In this document: positions 9,267-56,499 of the stretch, in pieces
How the letters are laid out: each line of letters opens with the position of its first letter
How positions within the stretch are numbered: the first letter of the stretch is position 1
Origin: an uncultured Acidobacteriota bacterium
Lineage (GTDB): Bacteria; Acidobacteriota; Polarisedimenticolia; J045
Direction: 5' to 3'
Assembly: GCA_963702425.1 (NCBI GenBank)
Contig: CAVPCQ010000006.1
Location: forward strand, 128,001-192,000
Length of the DNA stretch: 64,000 nucleotides
The notes under the pieces: generated by a model
Database searches by the model: none
Told to the model about the DNA's origin: nothing
What the model saw: only the letters and a program-made list of their open reading frames with translations
Position numbers and translations under genes: made by a program

Positions 9267-10156
9267 GCGACGCCGGCCCGTCCGTCGCGGCGTTTCTCCA
9301 GGACCTCGTCGCCGTGCGCGGGCTGTCGGCCCGGACCGTCGATGCCTACGGACGCGACCTGGCAGCCCTCTCCGACTTCCTCGCCGGGCGCGATGGCGCC
9401 GACCTCGTCGCGGTGGACGAGGACTCCCTGACAGCGTGGTTGAGAGCGCAGAAGGCGGCCGGGCTCTCGCCCGCCACGCGGGCTCGGCGGCTGGCGGCGG
9501 TCCGCGCGTACCTGCGCTATCTGCGCGAGGAGCGGGTGCGCGACGACGATCCCGGCCTCCGCCTCCCGGCCCCGCGGAAGCGGCGCCCGCTGCCGCGCGT
9601 GCTGAGCGAGTCCGATGTCGAGCGCCTGCTGGCCAGCCCGGAGACCGCCACGCCGCGCGGCCGGCGCGACCGCGCGATGCTCGAGCTGCTGTACGCCTCG
9701 GGGTTGCGCGTGTCGGAACTCTGCGCGCTGCGCACGGGGCAGCTCGACCTGCGCCGCGGGCTGGTGCGTGTGATGGGAAAGGGGAGCCGCGAGCGGATCG
9801 TTCCGGTCGGCGCGAAGGCGCTCGCCGCGCTGCGCGACTACCTCGAGCAGGGCCGGCCGGCATTCCGCCCGCGAGGGGACACGCTGTTCCCGGGGCGCGC
9901 CGGGCGGCCGATGACGCGCCAGAACTTCTGGGTCCAGCTCCGGCGGCTCGGGCAGGCTGCCGGGATCGACGCCTCGCGGCTCTCGCCGCACGTCGTGCGC
10001 CACTCGTTCGCCACCCACCTGGTCGAGCACGGAGCCGATCTGCGGACGGTGCAGCAGTTGCTGGGACACCGCGACATCTCGACCACCGAGATCTACACCC
10101 ACGTCGCACGCGAGCGGTTGCGCCGGCTATACGACGAGCACCACCCCCGGGCGTGA
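9263..10156 (+). CDS. xerD: Site-specific tyrosine recombinase XerD
   Basis: [53 protein letters not shown]. Confidence 0.9.
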
Positions 10157-44809: not shown

Positions 44810-45625
44810 ATGTCCGAGTCGGGGTTCGGCGACGAGTTCCTCGCCAACGGCGAGCCGCCGCCCGTGGTCAACACGGGGCGGGCACCCCTCACCCTGACGC
44901 TGCCGCAGTTCGAGGGGCCGCTCGACCTGCTCCTGCACCTCGTCCGTTCGAACGACATGGAGATCCTCGACATCGCGATCGTCGAGATCGCGCGGCAGTA
45001 CAACTTCTACCTCGACCAGATGCGGGAGCTCGACCTCGAGATCGCCTCCGAGTACCTGCTCATGGCCGCGACGCTCGCGCACATCAAGTCGCGCATGATG
45101 CTCCCGCCCGATCCGAGCGACGAGATCGAGGATCCGCGGGCCGAACTGGTTCGCCAGCTCCTCGACTACGAGCGCTACCGCAAGGCAGCCGAGGGGCTCG
45201 CAGCGCTCGAGAGCGGCCGGGACCTCGTCTTCTCGCGCCCCGGCCCGGCGCCTGCGGACCTGGCCGGCTACGAGACGATCAAGGCCGATCTCGGGGACCT
45301 GGTCAAGGCTTTCGAGCGCGTGCTCCGGCACCTCGAGATCGAGGAGCGGGTCGAGGTCATCCGGCGCGAAGACGTCAAGATCCAGGACATGATGCAGCGT
45401 CTGCTCGACGCGGTGGAGTCCGGCCGGTCGCTGTCGTTCCGCGAACTGCTGCTGGCCTGCCGCACGCGCCTCGAACGCGTGGTCCTCTTTCTCGCGCTGC
45501 TCGAGCTGATCCGCCTCGGGGCGATCGATGCCTGGCAGAGTGCGGCGCGGGAAGACATCACGCTCGAAGGGCGGGCGGGCGTTGCCATCGATCTGGCAGC
45601 GGAGGAGTCCGAGAGTGAGCACTGA
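44810..45625 (+). CDS. scpA: Segregation and condensation protein A
   Basis: FEGPLDLLLHL, EYLLMAATL..IKSRMMLP, EDPRAELV, FLALLEL. Confidence 0.95.
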   Translation: MSESGFGDEFLANGEPPPVVNTGRAPLTLTLPQFEGPLDLLLHLVRSNDMEILDIAIVEIARQYNFYLDQMRELDLEIASEYLLMAATLAHIKSRMMLPPDPSDEIEDPRAELVRQLLDYERYRKAAEGLAALESGRDLVFSRPGPAPADLAGYETIKADLGDLVKAFERVLRHLEIEERVEVIRREDVKIQDMMQRLLDAVESGRSLSFRELLLACRTRLERVVLFLALLELIRLGAIDAWQSAAREDITLEGRAGVAIDLAAEESESEH

Positions 45626-46334
45626 TCGCGCGACCCCGGGGTCGGAGTCAGAGCCCGAGCAGGAGGCCGAGGGCCTCCGCGTCCTGGCCGTGCTGGAAGC
45701 GATGCTCTTCGCCTCGCCGGAGCCGCTCAGCCCCGAGGAGATCCAGGCCGGTCTGCCGCAGATGCCGCGCGAGGAGATCGAACGCGGACTGGACGCCCTG
45801 GCGCGCGCGCTGGGGCACCCGGACCGCGGATTCCGGCTGGAACGCGTGGCGGGCGGCTTCCGGCTCGTGACCCGGCCCGACCTGGCGGAGCCGCTGCGGG
45901 CGCTCTTTCGCTTCCGCAACCAGCGCCGGCTCACTCCGGCTTCGCTCGACGTGCTGGCGATCATCGCCTACGCCCAGCCGATCACCGCTCCCGAGATCCA
46001 GGACATCCGCGGGACCGACCCGGCCCACTCGGTGCGGGTGCTGCTCGACCGCAAGTTGATCCGGATCGTCGGCCGCAAACGGGTGGTCGGTCGCCCGATC
46101 CTGTACGGCACGACGCGCGAGTTCCTGATCCACTTCGGGCTCGACAGCCTGGAGGACCTCCCGCCGGTCGAGGGGTATGGAACGCGCGTCGTCCCCGCGC
46201 AGGGTCGGCTCTTCCCGGTCACCGCGTTTCCGGCCGACGAGTTCGACCCCGAAGTGGGCCCGGAGATCGAGTTGTTCGAGGGGGAAGGGAACGGGTCGAG
46301 CGGTGCCGGAGAGGCCGCTCGGGGAGACGCCTGA
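45615..46334 (+). CDS. scpB: SMC-Scp complex subunit ScpB
   Basis: LEAMLF, LAIIAY.QPIT..EI..IRG, GRPILYGTT.EFL.HFGL.SL.DLP. Confidence 0.95.
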   Translation: MSTDRATPGSESEPEQEAEGLRVLAVLEAMLFASPEPLSPEEIQAGLPQMPREEIERGLDALARALGHPDRGFRLERVAGGFRLVTRPDLAEPLRALFRFRNQRRLTPASLDVLAIIAYAQPITAPEIQDIRGTDPAHSVRVLLDRKLIRIVGRKRVVGRPILYGTTREFLIHFGLDSLEDLPPVEGYGTRVVPAQGRLFPVTAFPADEFDPEVGPEIELFEGEGNGSSGAGEAARGDA

Positions 46335-52205: not shown

Positions 52206-52961
52206 ATGATCATCGCGATCACGAACCAGAAAGGCGGTGTCGGGAAGACGACCACCGCAATCAACCTCGCCGCCGCACTCGCTCAGAAGGGCTCGAGCAC
52301 GCTCCTGATCGACCTCGATCCGCAGGGCAACGCGACGCTTTCCTTCATTGATCTGAGCGCGATCGGGCGGTCGATGTACGAGGTCTTCGTCGATCCGGCG
52401 CTCGCCCTTCTGGACGTCGTCGTCCCAGCGCAGCAAGCGAATCTCTCGGTCGCCCCGGCGAGACTGTCCCTGGCGAAGGTCGAGCCGTCCCTGGCCGGGC
52501 AGCTCGATGCGCATTTCCGGCTGAAGGACAAGATCGGCCCGGCCCAGGCCGCCTACGATTTCATCGTCATCGATACGCCTCCGACACTCGGCATGCTGAC
52601 GGTCAACGCGATGATCGCGGCGACCCACCTTCTGGTCCCGATTCAGCCCTCCTACTTCGCGCTGGAAGGGACCGACGACCTGGTCGAGACGTACGAGCGG
52701 ATCCGGGTCCGAGCCAACCCCGACCTGCAGTTCCTGGGAGTCGTGCTGACGATGTACGACCGGCGTACGATCCTGGCGCGCGACATCGAGCGGCAGATCG
52801 GCGAGGTCTTCAAAGAGAAGTTGTTCCAGACCCGCATCAGCAAGAGCGTCCGGCTCGAGGAATCACCCGCCTACAAGGAGTCGATTTTCACGTTCGCGCC
52901 CTCGTCGAAGGGAGCGGAGGAGTACTATCGGCTTTCCGAGGAGGTACTGAAGCGTGGCTAA
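52206..52961 (+). CDS. parA: ParA/Soj family Walker-A ATPase
   Basis: NQKGGVGKTTT, IDLDPQGNAT, IDTPP.LG, VRLEESP. Confidence 0.93.
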   Translation: MIIAITNQKGGVGKTTTAINLAAALAQKGSSTLLIDLDPQGNATLSFIDLSAIGRSMYEVFVDPALALLDVVVPAQQANLSVAPARLSLAKVEPSLAGQLDAHFRLKDKIGPAQAAYDFIVIDTPPTLGMLTVNAMIAATHLLVPIQPSYFALEGTDDLVETYERIRVRANPDLQFLGVVLTMYDRRTILARDIERQIGEVFKEKLFQTRISKSVRLEESPAYKESIFTFAPSSKGAEEYYRLSEEVLKRG

Positions 52962-53916
52962 GGGAAGGGGACTGCCTCCCGACGTAAGAACCCGGGCGGA
53001 CGCGCACTACGTGGACGCGATCACGTCCGGGCGGATGGGCTCGGTCGGGCGAATGATCGACATCGAGCGCCTGGTGCCAAACCCGACCCAGCCTCGCAAG
53101 AGCCTGCGGGACATCGATGCGCTCGCCGAGTCGGTCCGGGAGCGTGGAATCCTCGAGCCGATCCTGGTCCGTCCTACGGAGGACGGCCGTTTCCAGATCA
53201 TCGCCGGCGAGCGGCGGTTTCATGCAGCCAAGCAGGTCGGCTTGACGATGGTGCCGTGCGTGGAGCTCGACGTCGACGAGCGGGGCTGCCTCGAGATCAG
53301 CCTGATTGAGAACCTCCAGCGGCGGGACCTGACGCCGTTCGAAGAAGCCGAGGCGATCGCGAGGCTCGTTGAGGACTTCCAGTACACACACGAGCAGATC
53401 GCCCGGAAGCTGGGGCGATCGCGCAGTTCGGTGACCGAGCTGCTGAGCCTCAACCGGATGCCCGAGTCGGTGAAAGAAGCATGTCGGCGCGCCGACATCA
53501 TGACGCGGACCGTCCTGATGGAGATCGTTCGCCAGGAGTCTGAGGAGGACATGCTGGCACTGGTGGACGCGGTCTTGTCCGGGAGCTTGACCCGGGATGA
53601 AGTGCGGGAGCTGAAGCGGAACCCGGGGGCCAGCGCGCCAGCCCGAGACGATGCGCGCGGACGTCCCTATGTGTTCCGCTACCGCCCGCCGAACCGCGAC
53701 TTTCAGTTGAGCCTCCGGTTTGAGCGCGAGGTCGTCGAGCCGAGGGAGCTGCTCGATATCCTGGAGCAGATCGTTTCTGACCTGAAGTCCCAGGTCGCCG
53801 ACGAGCGGCCCAGGGTCTCGACACCGCGTCCGGCCAGCATTTCCAACGAAGACGCGGGCGGGGCTGCGGCGAGCGGGAGAGGTCGCGTGTCGGTCGGTCC
53901 CGAGACCTCCCACTAG
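52954..53916 (+). CDS. parB: ParB/Spo0J family protein with an atypical DNA-binding region
   Basis: PNPTQPRK, GILEPILVR, IIAGERRF, ENLQRRDL, HTH THEQIARKLGRSRSSVTE. Confidence 0.92.
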   Translation: MAKGRGLPPDVRTRADAHYVDAITSGRMGSVGRMIDIERLVPNPTQPRKSLRDIDALAESVRERGILEPILVRPTEDGRFQIIAGERRFHAAKQVGLTMVPCVELDVDERGCLEISLIENLQRRDLTPFEEAEAIARLVEDFQYTHEQIARKLGRSRSSVTELLSLNRMPESVKEACRRADIMTRTVLMEIVRQESEEDMLALVDAVLSGSLTRDEVRELKRNPGASAPARDDARGRPYVFRYRPPNRDFQLSLRFEREVVEPRELLDILEQIVSDLKSQVADERPRVSTPRPASISNEDAGGAAASGRGRVSVGPETSH

Positions 53917-53925
53917 GATCGGTTC

Positions 53926-53960
53926 AGAAGGAGGGACGAAGCGTCGTCACCCTTCTCTTT
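53926..53960 (+). terminator. Putative intrinsic terminator of parAB
   Basis: Imperfect stem AGAAGGAGGGACGA/TCGTCACCCTTCT followed by CTTT. Confidence 0.5.
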
Positions 53961-53973
53961 GCTGGCTTTCATT

Positions 53974-54001
53974 ATTTGACATAATCATCATTATCGGACA
54001 T
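53974..54001 (-). other. dif: dif site (XerC/XerD chromosome dimer resolution site)
   Basis: Minus strand ATGTCCGATAA-TGATGA-TTATGTCAAAT in an 11-6-11 layout. The XerD arm is one mismatch from E. coli TTATGTTAAAT. It is intergenic and AT-rich, and gene orientation flips nearby. Confidence 0.85.
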
Positions 54002-54060
54002 TGTGGAAAACGGTGCAGGGCGGTGACCTGCGGTAGAATCCGGGTCCCCCGAGGCATGCG

Positions 54061-56499
54061 ATGAGGCTCTGGACGCGGCTCGACCGCTACGTGACCCGCG
54101 AACTCGGGCCGCCGCTCCTACTCGGCTTCGCCGGTTTTACCCTGGTCCTTCTGCTGCAGGCGCTCTTCATGATCGCCCGCCAGACGATCGAGAAACGCGT
54201 CCCGTTCAGCCTGCTTCTGGGCTTCGTCGTGGCCGAGTTGCCCCGGCTCTTCGCCTTCACGATCCCGATGGCGATCCTGCTGGCGGTCCTGGTGGGGATC
54301 GGCCGGATGGCATCCCAGGGCGAGATCACGGCCCTCCGGGCGGCGGGCGTCGGCCCGTCGCGGATCCTCCGCCCGGTCCTCGCCGTCGCTTCGCTCCTCG
54401 TGCTGCTCTCCCTCGCGAACGCCCACTATCTCGTGCCGATGGGCCAGATGAAGCGCCGCGCCCTCGTCCAGGAGATCGTCCGCGCCCGGGACCTCTCCCG
54501 CGAAACCGAACCGGGGGTCTTCTATCGCGGCCTCCCCGGGGCCGTGCTCTACGTCCGCTCCGTCTCCCAGTCGACCGAGGGGCCCGTCTTCGAAGGCGTC
54601 CTCCTCCAGCGACAGACCAACGAGTCGTCCGACTTGATCGTCGCCCGCCGGGGCCGGCCGATCTTCGACCGTGAATCCGGGCGGATCAGCTTCCTCCTCG
54701 ACGACGGCGAATGGCACATGTCCCGCCCCGACCGACCAACGACCTACAGCCGGGTGCGATTCGAACGTCACACGCTCACTTTCCCGCCCGACCCGGCTTT
54801 CCGCGCTTTCACCCGCTCGCGCTTCGAGGACCCGGGCACGCTCGCCGGGCCCCAGCTCTACGAGCAGGTGCGGGAGCTCGACGCCCGGGCCGCCGCGGCG
54901 ACCGAGACGGGCGCGCGGATCGCCGCAGAGCGCAAGGGACGGCTGACTCGGATCGAGTGGCAGCGTCGCTGGGCTATCCCGCTCGCGTGCCTCGCGCTGG
55001 CCTTCGCCGCTTTCCCCCTCGCGATGCGTCACCGCCGCGGCGGCATGTTCGCTGGACTTTCGCAGACCATGATCGTTATCTTCTTCTACTACCTCGTGTT
55101 ATCGACCGGACAGGGGTTCGCGGAACAAGGCACCTGGCCCCCGTGGCTCGCGGCCTGGATACCAGACATCGTTGCCGTCGGATTCGGACTTCTCGCGTGG
55201 CGTGTCGCGGCACGGCCGGAGCGGACCCGCTCACTGGCCGGAGCCCTTGCAGACCTATTCAGACGCCGCCCCAGGGAGACCCGTCTCCCGGGCGCCGTCG
55301 AGGCCACGAAGGCGGCCTCGGGGCCGCAGAGTCCTCCCCCGCCCGCCCCCGAACGGGCGACCGCTCCGCCCCGGCGTCGCCCGCGCTTCGGGCTTCAGAC
55401 CATCGACCTCTACCTCGCGGGCAGCTTCCTCCGCATGACCGCCGCGGTCCTGTTCGTGCTGCTCGTCCTGGCGCTGGCGATCGAGTTCAAGGGAGCGGTG
55501 GACAACGTGCCCGACGACGCCAAGGACTTCCCCTGGCGCTCCGTCCTGGCCTACGTCTTGCTCTCGATCCCCGGCCAGCTCCGCCTCATGGTCCCGATTG
55601 CGGCCCTCGTCGGGGTCTCGATCGCCCTCTCAGCCCTGGCGCGCGCCAACGAGCTGATCGCCATGAAGGCCTCGGGAATCGGTCCGGTCCGGATTGCGGT
55701 TCCGATGGTGGTTGCGGCGGCCGGGATCTCGCTGCTGCTGGTCGCGGTCCAGGAGCGCATCATCCCCGCCGCGGAACGCGAATCGCGCGCGGAACTCGAC
55801 CGGATCGCCGGCAAGTCGAGCGCCCGCGAGGCCGACGGAGGGCGGCGGTGGATCGTCGGCCATGACGATCGTCTGTGGGCGTATCTCGATGTCCCCGCGG
55901 GAAGCGCGGCCCTGGTCGAGCCCGGCGTGGTGGCCGTCGACTGGCCCAACGCGAGAATCCTCGAGCGAATTGAAGCCCGCGAGGCGAACTACGCCGACGG
56001 AACCTGGGACTTCCTCCAGGGCTGGCGCCGCTCGTTCGATGCTCAGGGCGCCGAGAGCTACGAAGCCTACCCGCGCTGGCGCTCCCGCGACACCGAGTCG
56101 CCCGAGCTCTTCGGAGCGGTTCGGAGCGGGATCGTCTTCGGACGCCGGATCGCCGACCAGATGAGCTTCCAGGAGCTTCGCAGCCATCTCCGCCGGATGG
56201 CCAACGCGGGCTACGACGCCGCACCGCTGCTCGTCGGCCTCAACGAGAAGCTCGTGATGCCGTTGCTCCCGATCGTCCTGGTGCTCGTCGCGATCCCGCT
56301 GACGGTATCCGGCTGGTCGCGGCGCGGCTCTCTGGCCGGGTTCGGCTACGCGCTCGTCATCGTCTTCGTCTTCTGGGTGATGTGGGCCGTTTCGACTTCG
56401 CTCGGGAGTGAATCGATCATCGACCCCGTGCTGGCGGTCTGGAGCCCCCCGATCCTGGTCGGCGTGTTCGGGATCTGGCTGCTCGGTCGCGCCCGTTGA
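54061..56499 (+). CDS. Fused LptF-LptG LPS export ABC transporter permease
   Basis: Two YjgP/YjgQ-type halves (LDRY...GEITALRAAGV; IDLY...NELIAMKASGI) joined by a Pro-rich linker. Confidence 0.88.
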   Translation: MRLWTRLDRYVTRELGPPLLLGFAGFTLVLLLQALFMIARQTIEKRVPFSLLLGFVVAELPRLFAFTIPMAILLAVLVGIGRMASQGEITALRAAGVGPSRILRPVLAVASLLVLLSLANAHYLVPMGQMKRRALVQEIVRARDLSRETEPGVFYRGLPGAVLYVRSVSQSTEGPVFEGVLLQRQTNESSDLIVARRGRPIFDRESGRISFLLDDGEWHMSRPDRPTTYSRVRFERHTLTFPPDPAFRAFTRSRFEDPGTLAGPQLYEQVRELDARAAAATETGARIAAERKGRLTRIEWQRRWAIPLACLALAFAAFPLAMRHRRGGMFAGLSQTMIVIFFYYLVLSTGQGFAEQGTWPPWLAAWIPDIVAVGFGLLAWRVAARPERTRSLAGALADLFRRRPRETRLPGAVEATKAASGPQSPPPPAPERATAPPRRRPRFGLQTIDLYLAGSFLRMTAAVLFVLLVLALAIEFKGAVDNVPDDAKDFPWRSVLAYVLLSIPGQLRLMVPIAALVGVSIALSALARANELIAMKASGIGPVRIAVPMVVAAAGISLLLVAVQERIIPAAERESRAELDRIAGKSSAREADGGRRWIVGHDDRLWAYLDVPAGSAALVEPGVVAVDWPNARILERIEAREANYADGTWDFLQGWRRSFDAQGAESYEAYPRWRSRDTESPELFGAVRSGIVFGRRIADQMSFQELRSHLRRMANAGYDAAPLLVGLNEKLVMPLLPIVLVLVAIPLTVSGWSRRGSLAGFGYALVIVFVFWVMWAVSTSLGSESIIDPVLAVWSPPILVGVFGIWLLGRAR

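Follow-up and report, generated by a model that had tools for sequence, protein, structure and literature searches.

A putative second ParABS system beside the dif site in Acidobacteriota

Chromosomal ParABS systems are the textbook machines of origin segregation. At the locus described here, however, a parA gene and a parB gene lie next to the chromosomal dif site. The window, i.e., the whole stretch of 64,000 nucleotides that was analysed, is part of the 445-kb contig C6 of an acidobacterial assembly (5.1 Mb, 42 contigs), and the features concerned are as follows.

52206 to 52961, plus strand: parA2, 251 aa (ORF and Pfam)
52954 to 53916, plus strand: parB2, 320 aa (ORF and Pfam)
53482 to 53497, no strand: parS2 candidate, a perfect palindrome, TGTCGGCGCGCCGACA (7-2-7), at parB2 codons 177–182 (C-R-R-A-D-I)
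53974 to 54001, minus strand: dif, a 28-bp XerC/XerD site, ATGTCCGATAA-TGATGA-TTATGTCAAAT
9290 to 10153, plus strand: xerD, 44 kb from dif (TIGR02225, 344.5 bits; cut-off 329.6)
about 44942 to 46166: scpA/scpB

The parA2 and parB2 reading frames overlap by 8 nt and are translationally coupled, and dif starts 58 bp downstream of parB2. The ORF list and the sequence itself reproduced the parB stop at 53916 and the start of a dif-like 28-mer at 53974, both given in a preliminary description of this DNA, which had also correctly placed xerD and scpAB in the same window. The neighbours of parAB2 and dif are housekeeping genes: rpsA, a miaB-like gene, bfn, lptFG, and dnaE. The assembly encodes XerD, the recombinase expected to act at dif, a XerC-like protein (C4:24709), and, beyond the window, FtsK with its gamma domain (C6:206726–209305).

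The partition proteins and their origin-linked counterparts

The product of parA2 is a Soj-type (short, type Ib) Walker ATPase. It matches Pfam AAA_31 (E=2e-52)/CbiA, and its closest solved structures are the ParA/Soj chains 8RAY, 1WCV, and 6IUB (E 1e-64 to 1e-73). It has the deviant Walker A signature KGGxGKT of the type Ib proteins, a Soj-like length, and no N-terminal HTH; the motif itself, NQKGGVGKTT, is invariant among the ParA2 orthologues. In all loci reaching that far, parA2 is immediately 5' of parB2.

ParB2 matches ParB_N (PF02195, 91.2 bits against a cut-off of 26.3) and HTH_ParB (PF17762, 61.2 bits), and both gene identities are well supported. As in the ParB/Spo0J CTPase family, the N-terminal domain carries the nucleotide-binding boxes II and III (GERRxRA and ENxxR in the family), and a central HTH follows. 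The CTPase motifs (GERRF..A and ENLQR) and the ParA-contact-like KGRGL that had been read in this protein are all present: the sequence contains KGRGL, IIAGERRFHAA, and ENLQRRDL, of which GERRFHAA and ENLQRRDL are the CTP-binding boxes. IIAGERR and ENLQR are invariant in 42 ParB2 orthologues, and a basic motif, K-x-R-G-L-P, is conserved in the N-terminus. The absence of the GHAR segment was also seen correctly, as the genome's origin-type ParB has GHGRAL at the position taken by IMTRTVLMEI in ParB2. The recognition helix of the HTH, SRSSVTE, is family-specific; the pattern (K/R)(S/A)R(S/T)x(I/V)TE is invariant in all ParB2 proteins, whereas the origin-type ParB1 has SVAN instead. In the AlphaFold2 model of ParB2 (pLDDT 81.8), the C-terminal domain, which may serve in dimerisation, is predicted to be beta(239–243)-beta(252–256)-helix(263–283) with pLDDT >90, and its sequence pattern is the same as in ParB1. 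The best Foldseek match is the Caulobacter ParB-parS complex 6T1F (target TM 0.84–0.88), and the ParB2 profile matches the structures 6T1F, 1VZ0, and 6SDK with E values of 1e-43 to 1e-47. A modelled complex of two ParA2 molecules, ATP, and residues 1–32 of ParB2 scored 0.24 against a mark of 0.32 and is counted neither way.

The parAB pair beside dif is a second pair, as had been supposed. It is not the only parAB of the genome, and dnaA is on another contig. Canonical parA and parB genes are found on contig C24 (36.7–38.1 kb), together with dnaA at C24:58,952 and a skew minimum at ~24 kb. The ParB_N matches in the assembly score 123.5 bits on C24 and 93.5 bits on C6. Two classical parS sites (TGTTCCACGTGGAACA) lie at C24:38248 and C24:38295, just upstream of parA1, and there are none elsewhere in the assembly, which agrees with the earlier failure to see a classical parS in the window by eye. 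ParA2 and ParA1 are 42% identical, and ParB2 and ParB1 are 40% identical over residues 2–175 only.

The dif site and a conserved 16-bp palindrome

The dif-like 28-mer is a true dif, well beyond a chance match. It is built as 11-6-11, and 10 of the 11 bases of its right arm match the XerD arm of the E. coli dif and the Frankia alni arm (PMC3025954); on the minus strand, the XerD arm is the side nearest parB2. With a weight matrix made from 56 orthologous sites, dif scores 35.3 bits and the next-best site of the whole assembly 3.3 bits; in other words, dif is unique and has no second copy. In the consensus of the 56 sites, ACGTCCGATAA-TGTATA-TTATGTCAACT, the arms are conserved (XerD arm TTATGTnAAnT; 1.6–1.8 bits in the arm cores), and the 6-bp spacer is variable (0.1–0.9 bits). 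The GC skew was computed per contig, since an assembly in 42 contigs gives no whole-genome skew curve. On C6, the cumulative skew, which had been proposed as a check, reaches its maximum at 182,078, ~100 bp from dif at 181,974. On a Vicinamibacteria contig (G042), the skew peak (1,266,288) and dif (1,268,683) are 2.4 kb apart. A single dif at the skew switch opposite the origin is thus the arrangement found, although it is weaker in G041, where the local skew peak is 23 kb off dif and the right arm is noisy.

The palindrome TGTCGGC-NN-GCCGACA at 53482–53497, which the preliminary description had overlooked, occurs nowhere else in the 5.1-Mb assembly. Of 62 orthologous loci, 61 contain it, 57 of them with perfect arms and 4 with one mismatch, and even a locus with 31% G+C retains it with one mismatch; it was not found in L065, a locus cut upstream. 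The site can lie at any of three places, namely in parB2 itself, in the stretch from parB2 to dif, or 5' of parA2. In 38 of the 61 orthologues, it is intragenic, ~528 bp into the parB2 coding sequence, where it is spelled by the conserved codons TGT CGG Cnn GCC GAC A, with Arg, Gln, or Leu as the middle codon; this five-codon window ranks first of 260 for synonymous codon identity. Of the 23 orthologues lacking the intragenic site, 18 carry a perfect one in another part of the locus. Near-palindromic intragenic variants (L035, L045, and L048) were considered as compensatory changes and rejected, because a perfect consensus site exists elsewhere in each of these loci; the variants reflect site turnover rather than covariation.

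The distribution of the palindrome follows that of ParB2. Among the 35 class genomes with the palindrome, 33 carry exactly one copy. In a phylum sample of 151 genomes (the compared genomes are mostly MAGs), 90 encode ParB2, and 64 of the 65 palindrome-bearing genomes are among them; the palindrome is found in only 1 of the 61 genomes lacking ParB2. The reversed pattern, used as a control, matched 0 of 41 class genomes and 4 of 151 phylum-sample genomes, and none of the 48 canonical ParB loci examined from other phyla has the palindrome. The exact site is missing in 26 of the 90 ParB2-encoding genomes, and its position can also be remote: it is 44–51 kb from parAB2 in the f43 genomes and on a different contig in G056. 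As a separate observation, palindromes of another sequence, ACAGACT-NN-AGTCTGT, occur 3' of parB2 in two genomes of f41. They were considered as variant parS2 sites, a reading that was not upheld, as the recognition helix of ParB2 is unchanged there.

Judging from this co-occurrence, we read the palindrome as the putative centromere (parS2) of a ParABS2 system, to which ParB2 would bind. It might also be the operator of a CRP/FNR-type (CooA-like) or other transcription factor, with ParB2 binding some other site. According to the text of PMC545781, TGTCGGCNNGCCGACA, to which the 16-mer consensus is identical, is the CooA site of the coo operons of Desulfovibrio and R. rubrum, and in the Aminicenantes-type loci the palindrome has a promoter-like place, 80–165 bp upstream of parA2. 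Against this, the site is inside the parB2 coding sequence in most orthologues and downstream of parB2 in others. It is also the sole copy in most genomes and tracks ParB2, and parS is classically arranged in just this way, as a 16-bp palindrome with TGT...ACA ends that lies within parB or next to it. We regard the operator reading as very unlikely.

Linkage to dif, terminus position, and descent

The preliminary description expected the orthologues of a terminus system to be linked to dif, and this is what is seen. Of 59 non-truncated loci, 56 have dif no more than 1.4 kb downstream of parB2, and 52 of these share one orientation of dif with respect to parB2. The linkage is also seen where neither of the flanking genes bfn and lptFG is present, namely in 10 Aminicenantes-type loci. 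In the phylum sample, 60 of the 90 ParB2-encoding genomes match a strict dif pattern; of these 60, 48 have dif no farther than 3 kb from parB2, and 8 more have it at 4–23 kb. The other 30 genomes have no exact match, and in these dif may have diverged or the pattern may be too strict; in G108, an adjacent dif was found by the weight matrix. A further 16 parB2 loci of the phylum were picked for lacking an exact parS2 or having a distant one, and among them no dif was found within 3 kb of parB2 in f19, f26, f27, and two of the three f43 loci; in f26 and f43, pattern matches place dif 3.5–6.9 kb from parB2. The linkage is therefore not universal, and some families break it.

In six closed or near-closed chromosomes, parB2 and dnaA are separated by 41–54% of the chromosome: 47.5% in G126, 47% (short arc) in G108, 47.2% in G142, ~46% in G083, 48.6% in G044, and 40.7% in G041. 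Thus parAB2 is outside the origin-proximal part of the chromosome, in which the parS and parAB of origin-type systems are found. A distance of 580 kb between parB1 and parB2 on "one contig" of G006 was rejected as meaningless, because this record is a joined scaffold with N runs in nearly every 10-kb block.

The closeness of these elements allows a reading without transport, in which ParB2 loaded at parS2 would act mainly on recombination at dif, as a Xer accessory factor that pairs sister dif sites or gates the access or activation of XerCD until FtsK arrives, and ParA2 would be a timer, not a positioning motor. The very short distance between parS2 and dif (median 499 bp, range 41–1931 bp, 55 loci), the fixed orientation of dif, and the persistence of the linkage where both flanking genes differ speak for such a factor, and terminus placement alone would not require sub-kilobase linkage. 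Against it, dif-pattern matches are 3.5–23 kb from parB2 in f43, f26, G052, G058, and G084, parS2 can be as remote as in f43, and a full Soj-type ParA is retained throughout, which points to nucleoid movement. We consider this role rather unlikely.

ParB2 is present in one copy per genome, and 36 of the 37 class genomes with ParB2 also carry ParB1. Its identity falls with taxonomic distance, from 89–93% within the genus to 64–73% within the family, 46–55% within the class, and 37–50% to other classes. In the tree, 52 ParB2 orthologues form one branch (SH-aLRT 100), separate from the ParB1 proteins of Acidobacteriota, with a long stem (0.95 substitutions per site) and no clear sister. The "ParB2-like" genes of f21 have no adjacent parA2 and may be non-orthologous. 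This clade-wise distribution argues for vertical inheritance; the patchy spread of a mobile cassette, which would have spoken against a terminus system, is not seen.

The preliminary description also offered a domesticated plasmid or a Xer-integrated element (IMEX) as an alternative. Its remnant, long fixed beside dif, would make the linkage historical rather than functional. The gonococcal genetic island and other IMEX are mobile and strain-variable and have two flanking dif-like sites, whereas the ParABS2 module has one dif and is a core-genome locus with class-level conservation. That dif-integrating elements can bear parA and parB is known from the gonococcal island (text of PMC8716806). 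The long ParB2 stem with its unclear sister would also suit a foreign origin, as would the G+C content of parAB2 (0.63–0.65), slightly below that of the neighbours (~0.69–0.72), though the nearby rpsA is equally low. The rest of the evidence leaves this alternative unsupported. There is no flanking duplicate of dif, the neighbours are housekeeping genes, the single copy diverges congruently with taxonomy over several classes, and parS2 and all the protein motifs are strongly conserved. No close relative of ParB2 was found among 72,556 plasmids (best match 130 bits, <44% identity) or in IMG/VR (best match 36% identical), and parS2 was found in 0 of 80 viral loci. We judge a remnant of this kind very unlikely.

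Possible roles of a partition system at the terminus

A second ParA and ParB with their own centromere-like site beside dif suggest a partition machine for the end of the chromosome, not its start. We consider it probable that ParA2, ParB2, and parS2 together form a second ParABS that is inherited vertically and dedicated to the terminus of replication. A terminus-dedicated second ParAB had been proposed in the preliminary description: its anatomical part, linkage to dif and position at the terminus, is borne out by the comparisons above, and for its functional part, we infer that ParAB2 would position or pair the dif region for division and for the action of Xer and FtsK.

The mechanism that we propose uses four parts: a Soj-type ATPase, a ParB with intact CTP boxes, usually one 16-bp palindrome, and the single chromosomal dif. 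ParB2 dimers would load at parS2, close as CTP-dependent clamps, and slide across the adjacent few kilobases, so that dif would lie within a ParB2 nucleoprotein complex. Nucleoid-bound ParA2-ATP could then bring this cargo to mid-nucleoid, just as a type I system positions a single plasmid, and dif would come to lie beneath the septum as it closes, at the site of FtsK and XerCD action. Bridging between ParB2 molecules could also keep the sister dif sites paired up to their clearance by FtsK. Once the terminus is replicated and any dimer is resolved, ParA2 might part the two ParB2 complexes as the last step of segregation. In its full form, the proposal is that many Acidobacteriota may have two centromeres per chromosome, i.e., that of the origin ParABS and that of an orthogonal ParABS2, a single centromere within 2 kb of dif that actively moves dif to the division plane, pairs sister dif sites, and separates the termini. 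Such a system would be a motor-driven counterpart of MatP and ZapT and the first partition system known on a chromosome terminus. We offer this form tentatively, our doubts slightly outweighing our confidence.

ParB2 might alternatively mark the terminus for a regulator of the division site or of nucleoid occlusion, with a MipZ/PomZ-like ParA2 or a Noc-like ParB2. Division control has drawn on ParB paralogues and ParA-like ATPases before (Noc, text of PMC8429893; MipZ, text of PMC6315104), and ParA2 weakly matches Pfam MipZ (E=2e-12). Noc is, like ParB2, a ParB-family CTPase paralogue with altered DNA specificity, and ParB2 scores as well on the Noc model TIGR04285 as on the ParB model, yet its 153 bits are below the Noc cut-off of 315. 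Noc has no dedicated ParA, a scattered array of many sites, and membrane tethering; ParB2 has a single putative site, at the terminus, in most genomes and a ParA partner whose gene is always adjacent. Moreover, ParA2 is nearest to Soj structures, and we read the ParB2 N-terminus as the basic RGLP typical of ParA contact, with no amphipathic membrane helix. A role as a division regulator is improbable in our estimation.

The proposed terminus ParABS has much in common with the origin systems of Caulobacter, B. subtilis, and Thermus: the protein families, the parA-parB order with an overlap, the ParB fold (as in 6T1F) with box II/III, and a 16-bp palindrome in or beside parB. It differs from them in its location at the terminus and not near oriC, in usually having one site, in its physical linkage to dif, and in sharing its chromosome with a classical system. 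The reviews PMC7333895 and PMC7022226 locate parS near the origin. Supplementary tables with per-genome dif predictions (PMC3025954, with 3 Acidobacteria) or a ParB-fold survey (PMC12704722) may be relevant here; outside such tables, no terminus- or dif-linked ParABS was found in the literature, including PMC12704722 and PMC7022226.

Secondary replicons (ParAB2/parS2 of Vibrio cholerae chromosome 2) and type Ib plasmids give the cell an additional ParABS that is orthogonal and recognises a parS of its own, and a single cargo is expected at mid-nucleoid, as proposed for ParABS2. However, these systems serve a separate replicon and lie near its origin, whereas ParABS2 would serve the terminus of the main chromosome, and no close relative of ParB2 was found among the plasmids searched. 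To our knowledge, the placement of the terminus and dif under the septum is a largely open matter outside enterobacteria and Caulobacter. MatP acts through about 23 matS sites across the macrodomain, whereas ParABS2 would act through one site and an ATPase motor. MatP (E. coli) and ZapT (Caulobacter) are unrelated proteins with the role proposed for ParABS2, and keep the terminus at mid-cell in coordination with division and FtsK/XerCD (text of PMC4177673 and PMC7858052). A precedent for a gene retained beside dif is given by xerS-difSL and xerH-difH (text of PMC2731167); the linked gene is a recombinase there and a partition system here, with xerD 44 kb off.

A conserved ParABS at dif with its own parS would be a defined and portable handle on the terminus, consisting of two proteins and one 16-bp site, and the conserved palindrome makes the terminus-partition hypothesis directly testable. 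A cell with both systems would also have two naturally orthogonal ParB/parS specificities, of use for studying the evolution of ParB specificity and for labelling loci: parS2 is TGTCGGC-NN-GCCGACA and the origin parS is TGTTCCACGTGGAACA, the recognition helix has TE in ParB2 and AN in origin ParB, and the GHAR segment is replaced in ParB2.

The terminus locus and the origin-linked pair

Features of the terminus region (window coordinates unless a contig is named)
Upstream of parA2: bfn, bifunctional-nuclease-domain gene, housekeeping flank
52206-52961: parA2, 251-aa ParA (ORF; Pfam/NCBIfam AAA_31/ParA)
52954-53916: parB2, 320-aa ParB (ORF; Pfam/NCBIfam ParB_N and HTH_ParB)
53482-53497: candidate parS2 inside parB2, perfect 16-bp palindrome TGTCGGCGCGCCGACA (codons C-R-R-A-D-I)
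53974-54001: dif, 58 bp past the parB2 stop, ATTTGACATAATCATCATTATCGGACAT
54061-56499: lptFG, lptF-lptG fusion downstream of dif, single 812-aa ORF (TIGR04407 and TIGR04408 both above cut-off)
9290-10153 (C6:137290): XerD, above the equivalog cut-off
44942-46166: scpA and scpB
C6:206726-209305, outside the window: FtsK with gamma domain, the only one in the genome
C4:24709: XerC-like protein

The assembly comprises 42 contigs, and the window is positions 128001-192000 of contig C6 (445 kb). The cumulative GC skew of C6 climbs as far as 182,078, its maximum, and drops beyond it; dif, at 181,974, lies where this skew places the terminus. Its minus-strand reading is ATGTCCGATAA-TGATGA-TTATGTCAAAT. 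According to PMC3025954, the dif seeds of E. coli and Frankia alni are GGTGCGCATAA-TGTATA-TTATGTTAAAT and CACGCCGATAA-TGCACA-TTATGTCAAGT, and that of B. subtilis ends with TTATGTAAACT; the right arm of the window site agrees at 10 of 11 bases with those of E. coli and F. alni. Fifty-six orthologous sites yield the consensus ACGTCCGATAA-TGTATA-TTATGTCAACT, with nearly invariant arm cores and a variable 6-bp spacer, as is characteristic of tyrosine-recombinase core sites. Scored with a matrix of these 56 sites, the window 28-mer reaches 35.3 bits, against 3.3 bits for the runner-up anywhere in the 5.1-Mb assembly; it is a genuine dif, located at the terminus. The runner-up occurs as identical copies on three contigs (C38:60679, C32:200115, and C15:107514); it probably belongs to a dispersed repeat and is no dif.

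The preliminary description, made from the sequence alone, had placed a parB stop at 53916 and the start of a dif-like 28-mer at 53974, with xerD and scpAB in the same window, and all of these hold, the gap being 58 bp. Its reading of the ParB protein was also correct: the ORF, which overlaps that of parA2, begins with MAKGRGLPP (the KGRGL N-terminus), has the CTPase motifs as GERRFHAA and ENLQRRDL, and in place of the GHAR segment carries IMTRTVLMEI, at the position of GHGRAL in the other ParB of the genome. This other protein, ParB1 on contig C24, has an ORF of 337 aa, follows a 275-aa ParA1, and is the stronger match of the two ParB_N genes in the genome. ParB2 is 40% identical to ParB1, confined to residues 2-175, and ParA2 is 42% identical to ParA1. 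The recognition helix (K/R)(S/A)R(S/T)x(I/V)TE is invariant in every ParB2 protein examined, whereas ParB1 has SVAN.

Two classical parS sites, TGTTCCACGTGGAACA, lie at C24:38248 and 38295, just upstream of parA1, and no other site within two mismatches of the classical 16-mer was found in the whole genome, in agreement with the earlier failure to see one in the window. With dnaA at C24:58952 and the skew minimum of C24 at about 24 kb, the separate origin-linked pair that had been called for is present on C24, and parAB2, on C6, is neither the only pair nor the one that shares a contig with dnaA. The C24 operon, 22 kb from dnaA, has the order two parS, parA1, parB1, and then a bactofilin-like ORF (C24:35444-38719, locus L001; the last ORF at L001:611-1237, minus strand), an order that resembles the parAB-bactofilin arrangement of Myxococcus.

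In the AlphaFold2 model of ParB2 (42-row alignment; pLDDT 81.8), a ParB N-domain precedes a helical DNA-binding domain and, at the C-terminus, a beta-beta-alpha module predicted with confidence. The first Foldseek match of the model is the Caulobacter ParB-parS complex 6T1F (rmsd 2.1-2.3 A, target TM 0.84-0.88); Noc, Myxococcus ParB, B. subtilis ParB, and KorB rank next. The alignment of ParA2 to solved Soj/ParA proteins spans end to end.

A palindrome as candidate centromere

The palindrome inside parB2 is the sole copy in the genome, and allowing one mismatch adds a single match, equal to the level in the reversed-genome control. Written as codons, TGT CGG Cnn GCC GAC A is exact in 38 of 61 aligned ParB2 orthologues, and the middle codon may be Arg, Gln, or Leu; because this codon varies while the arms are fixed, it is the DNA of the arms, rather than the protein, that is constrained. 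Among 55 sequences, left after removal of six rows that were near-duplicate or truncated, this five-codon window ranks first of 260 in codon identity among same-residue pairs (0.74 versus a median of 0.46). Of the other 23 orthologues, 18 carry a perfect site at another place in the locus, 5 between parB2 and dif and 13 at 80-510 bp upstream of parA2 (9 of these in Aminicenantes-type loci); four more have one-mismatch copies only, and one (L065) is truncated on its upstream side. Taken together, the 62 ParB2-type loci have perfect arms in 57 cases, one mismatch in 4, and no site in 1. The palindrome is absent from all 48 canonical ParB loci of other phyla and from all 80 viral ones.

Whole-genome scans of the class found the exact site in 35 of 41 genomes and the reversed pattern in none of the 41. 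Thirty-three of the 35 have a single copy, one has three, all in the locus, and one has an extra copy elsewhere; the six genomes lacking it include four without a ParB2 gene (assemblies 77-87% complete) and one with a one-mismatch site. A sample of the phylum, comprising 151 genomes with a completeness of 90% or more, was scored for ParB2 at E of at most 1e-45 (90 positive, always one copy); the exact site occurs in 65 of the 151 genomes and the control pattern in 4. Sixty-four of the 65 are ParB2-positive, the site is present in 1 of 61 ParB2-negative genomes, and 26 of the 90 positive genomes lack it. From conservation, single copy, co-occurrence with ParB2, and the distinct recognition helix, we infer that the palindrome is parS2, a candidate centromere that ParB2 would bind. 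It should be mentioned that its consensus is, letter for letter, that of the CooA operator of the Desulfovibrio and R. rubrum coo operons (PMC545781). Intragenic and downstream placement, single occurrence, and co-occurrence with ParB2 speak against an operator of the CRP type, and a role as operator of another factor is highly improbable; the identity with the CooA consensus is probably convergence between palindromes of HTH proteins.

Linkage to dif and its exceptions

A ParB2 orthologue (46-93% identity) is present in 37 of the 41 class genomes, and 36 of these carry a ParB1-type gene as well. The gene order bfn-parA2-parB2-(dif)-lptFG is widespread (bfn in 27 and lptFG in 24 of 30 loci, most misses at contig ends). 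In the window, rpsA, a miaB-like gene, and dnaE also lie near parAB2, the flanks being housekeeping genes. Named records with the module include MAGs labelled Vicinamibacteria, Polarisedimenticolia, Aminicenantes, and 'Acidobacteriota', and a few bins with obviously foreign labels carry it in the same synteny. The fused lptF-lptG form was seen again downstream of dif in many relatives.

The distances from orthologues to dif bear out the proposed linkage. Among 62 loci, 59 are uncut, and 56 of these have dif within 1.4 kb downstream of parB2, with the XerD arm nearest parB2 in 52 and inverted in 4; for L027, L049, and L068, the flanking sequence available contains none. In L027 (G033:C6) the parB2 frame runs on to 535 aa, which may reflect a gene fusion or loss of the stop codon, and the 753 bp after the stop contain no dif. 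Ten Aminicenantes-type loci without bfn and lptFG still have parS2-parA2-parB2-dif, with dif 24-78 bp past the stop; because the module is kept where both flanks differ, the linkage is not just frozen synteny. The nearest parS2 lies a median of 499 bp from dif (range 41-1931 bp, 55 loci). The phylum sample gives an unbiased count: a strict pattern (ACATAA-N6-TTATVVRAC, exact match) occurs in 60 of the 90 ParB2-positive genomes (30 have no exact match), less than 3 kb from parB2 in 48, at 4-23 kb on the same contig in 8, and only on other contigs in 4. Since 36 ParB2-negative genomes also match, dif extends across the phylum, with ParABS2 added to it in about 60% of the sample. Three unpublished genomes, G034 (locus L036), G064, and G088, are counted in these tallies, and none of the claims rests on them alone.

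Sixteen extra loci of the phylum were fetched because the exact parS2 was missing or distant. Seven have a strong adjacent dif, and five, one of them at 31% G+C, have a one-mismatch parS2 at the usual places. Dif was not found within 3 kb of parB2 in families f19, f26, and f27 and two of three f43 loci; f26 and f43 have matches to the dif pattern 3.5-6.9 kb away. Family f43 (L261, L263, and L265 from G079, G105, and G116) has the consensus parS2 on the same contig, 44-51 kb from parAB2, with no par genes or dif found near it, and offers a natural test of which linkage matters. In G056 the consensus parS2 is on a different contig from parAB2. Two f21 ParB2 genes have no adjoining parA2 and may not be orthologues. 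Family f41 (G074, G100) lacks the consensus parS2 and has a 7-2-7 palindrome, ACAGACT-NN-AGTCTGT, right after parB2 (L254:2962 and 3019; L256:3907), with the ParB2 recognition helix unchanged.

The terminal position recurs in other genomes. On a 3.15-Mb Vicinamibacteria contig (G042), the skew of a 400-kb stretch peaks at 1,266,288, with dif at 1,268,683; on an Aminicenantes chromosome (G041, CP070750.1), a local peak lies 23 kb from dif, the right arm being noisy. The separation of dnaA and parB2 is 47.5% in G126, 47% by the short arc in G108 (3,949,503 bp), 47.2% in G142, about 46% in G083, 48.6% in G044, and 40.7% in G041, genome sizes being rounded except for G041 and G108. The single 4.11-Mb record of G006 was excluded: over the 400 kb inspected, almost all 10-kb blocks contain runs of N, which mark it as a joined scaffold, so its gene distances are not usable.

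Descent and possible function

A fast maximum-likelihood tree of 113 rows and 291 columns, with SH-aLRT as the sole support measure and nine rows omitted as near-identical or truncated, places all 52 ParB2 rows on one branch (support 100, stem 0.95) and 13 Acidobacteriota ParB1 rows on another (support 99), clear support being limited to these branches. The preliminary description had allowed for a plasmid or Xer-integrating element remnant and for a patchy, cassette-like distribution. Whole families have or lack ParB2 (0/8 in f30, 0/11 in f32, and 8/8 in f33), and the closest plasmid (PLSDB; 130 bits, <44% identity) and viral (IMG/VR; 36% identity) relatives are distant, leaving a domesticated mobile cassette very unlikely; the distribution is in keeping with vertical inheritance, the gene being gained or lost by whole clades.

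The anatomy of the parAB2 locus is that of a complete, orthogonal ParABS with its centromere at the terminus and dif within sliding range. The second ParAB at ter/dif proposed earlier is thus upheld in genomic position, by the C6 skew maximum, the dif linkage, and the separate C24 pair. Two reviews (PMC7333895, PMC7022226) place parS near the origin, and in the literature searched, together with passages from a review on ParB and from a 2025 survey of its fold, no terminus- or dif-linked ParABS came up. By analogy with type I partition systems, a single ParB2-parS2-dif complex would most likely be placed at mid-nucleoid before division, and its two copies would be separated afterwards; the system may also pair sister dif sites, the complex being cleared by FtsK. 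A role as Xer accessory factor seems to us unlikely, and one as division regulator rather more so.

The xerD, scpAB, and ftsK genes each lie within 45 kb of dif, and homologues of XerD and FtsK lie 6.6 kb and 52 kb from dif in G042 and G041, respectively; this may be a loose cluster of terminus-handling genes, or chance. Contig C17 of the genome under study has three IstB/DnaA-like AAA matches and four clustered Xer-like recombinase genes (C17:1794-14766, about 50-81 kb, and 73199), together with two 16-bp palindromes, each present three times (50349/71269/81099 and 50625/71545/81375); the arrangement suggests repeated mobile elements.
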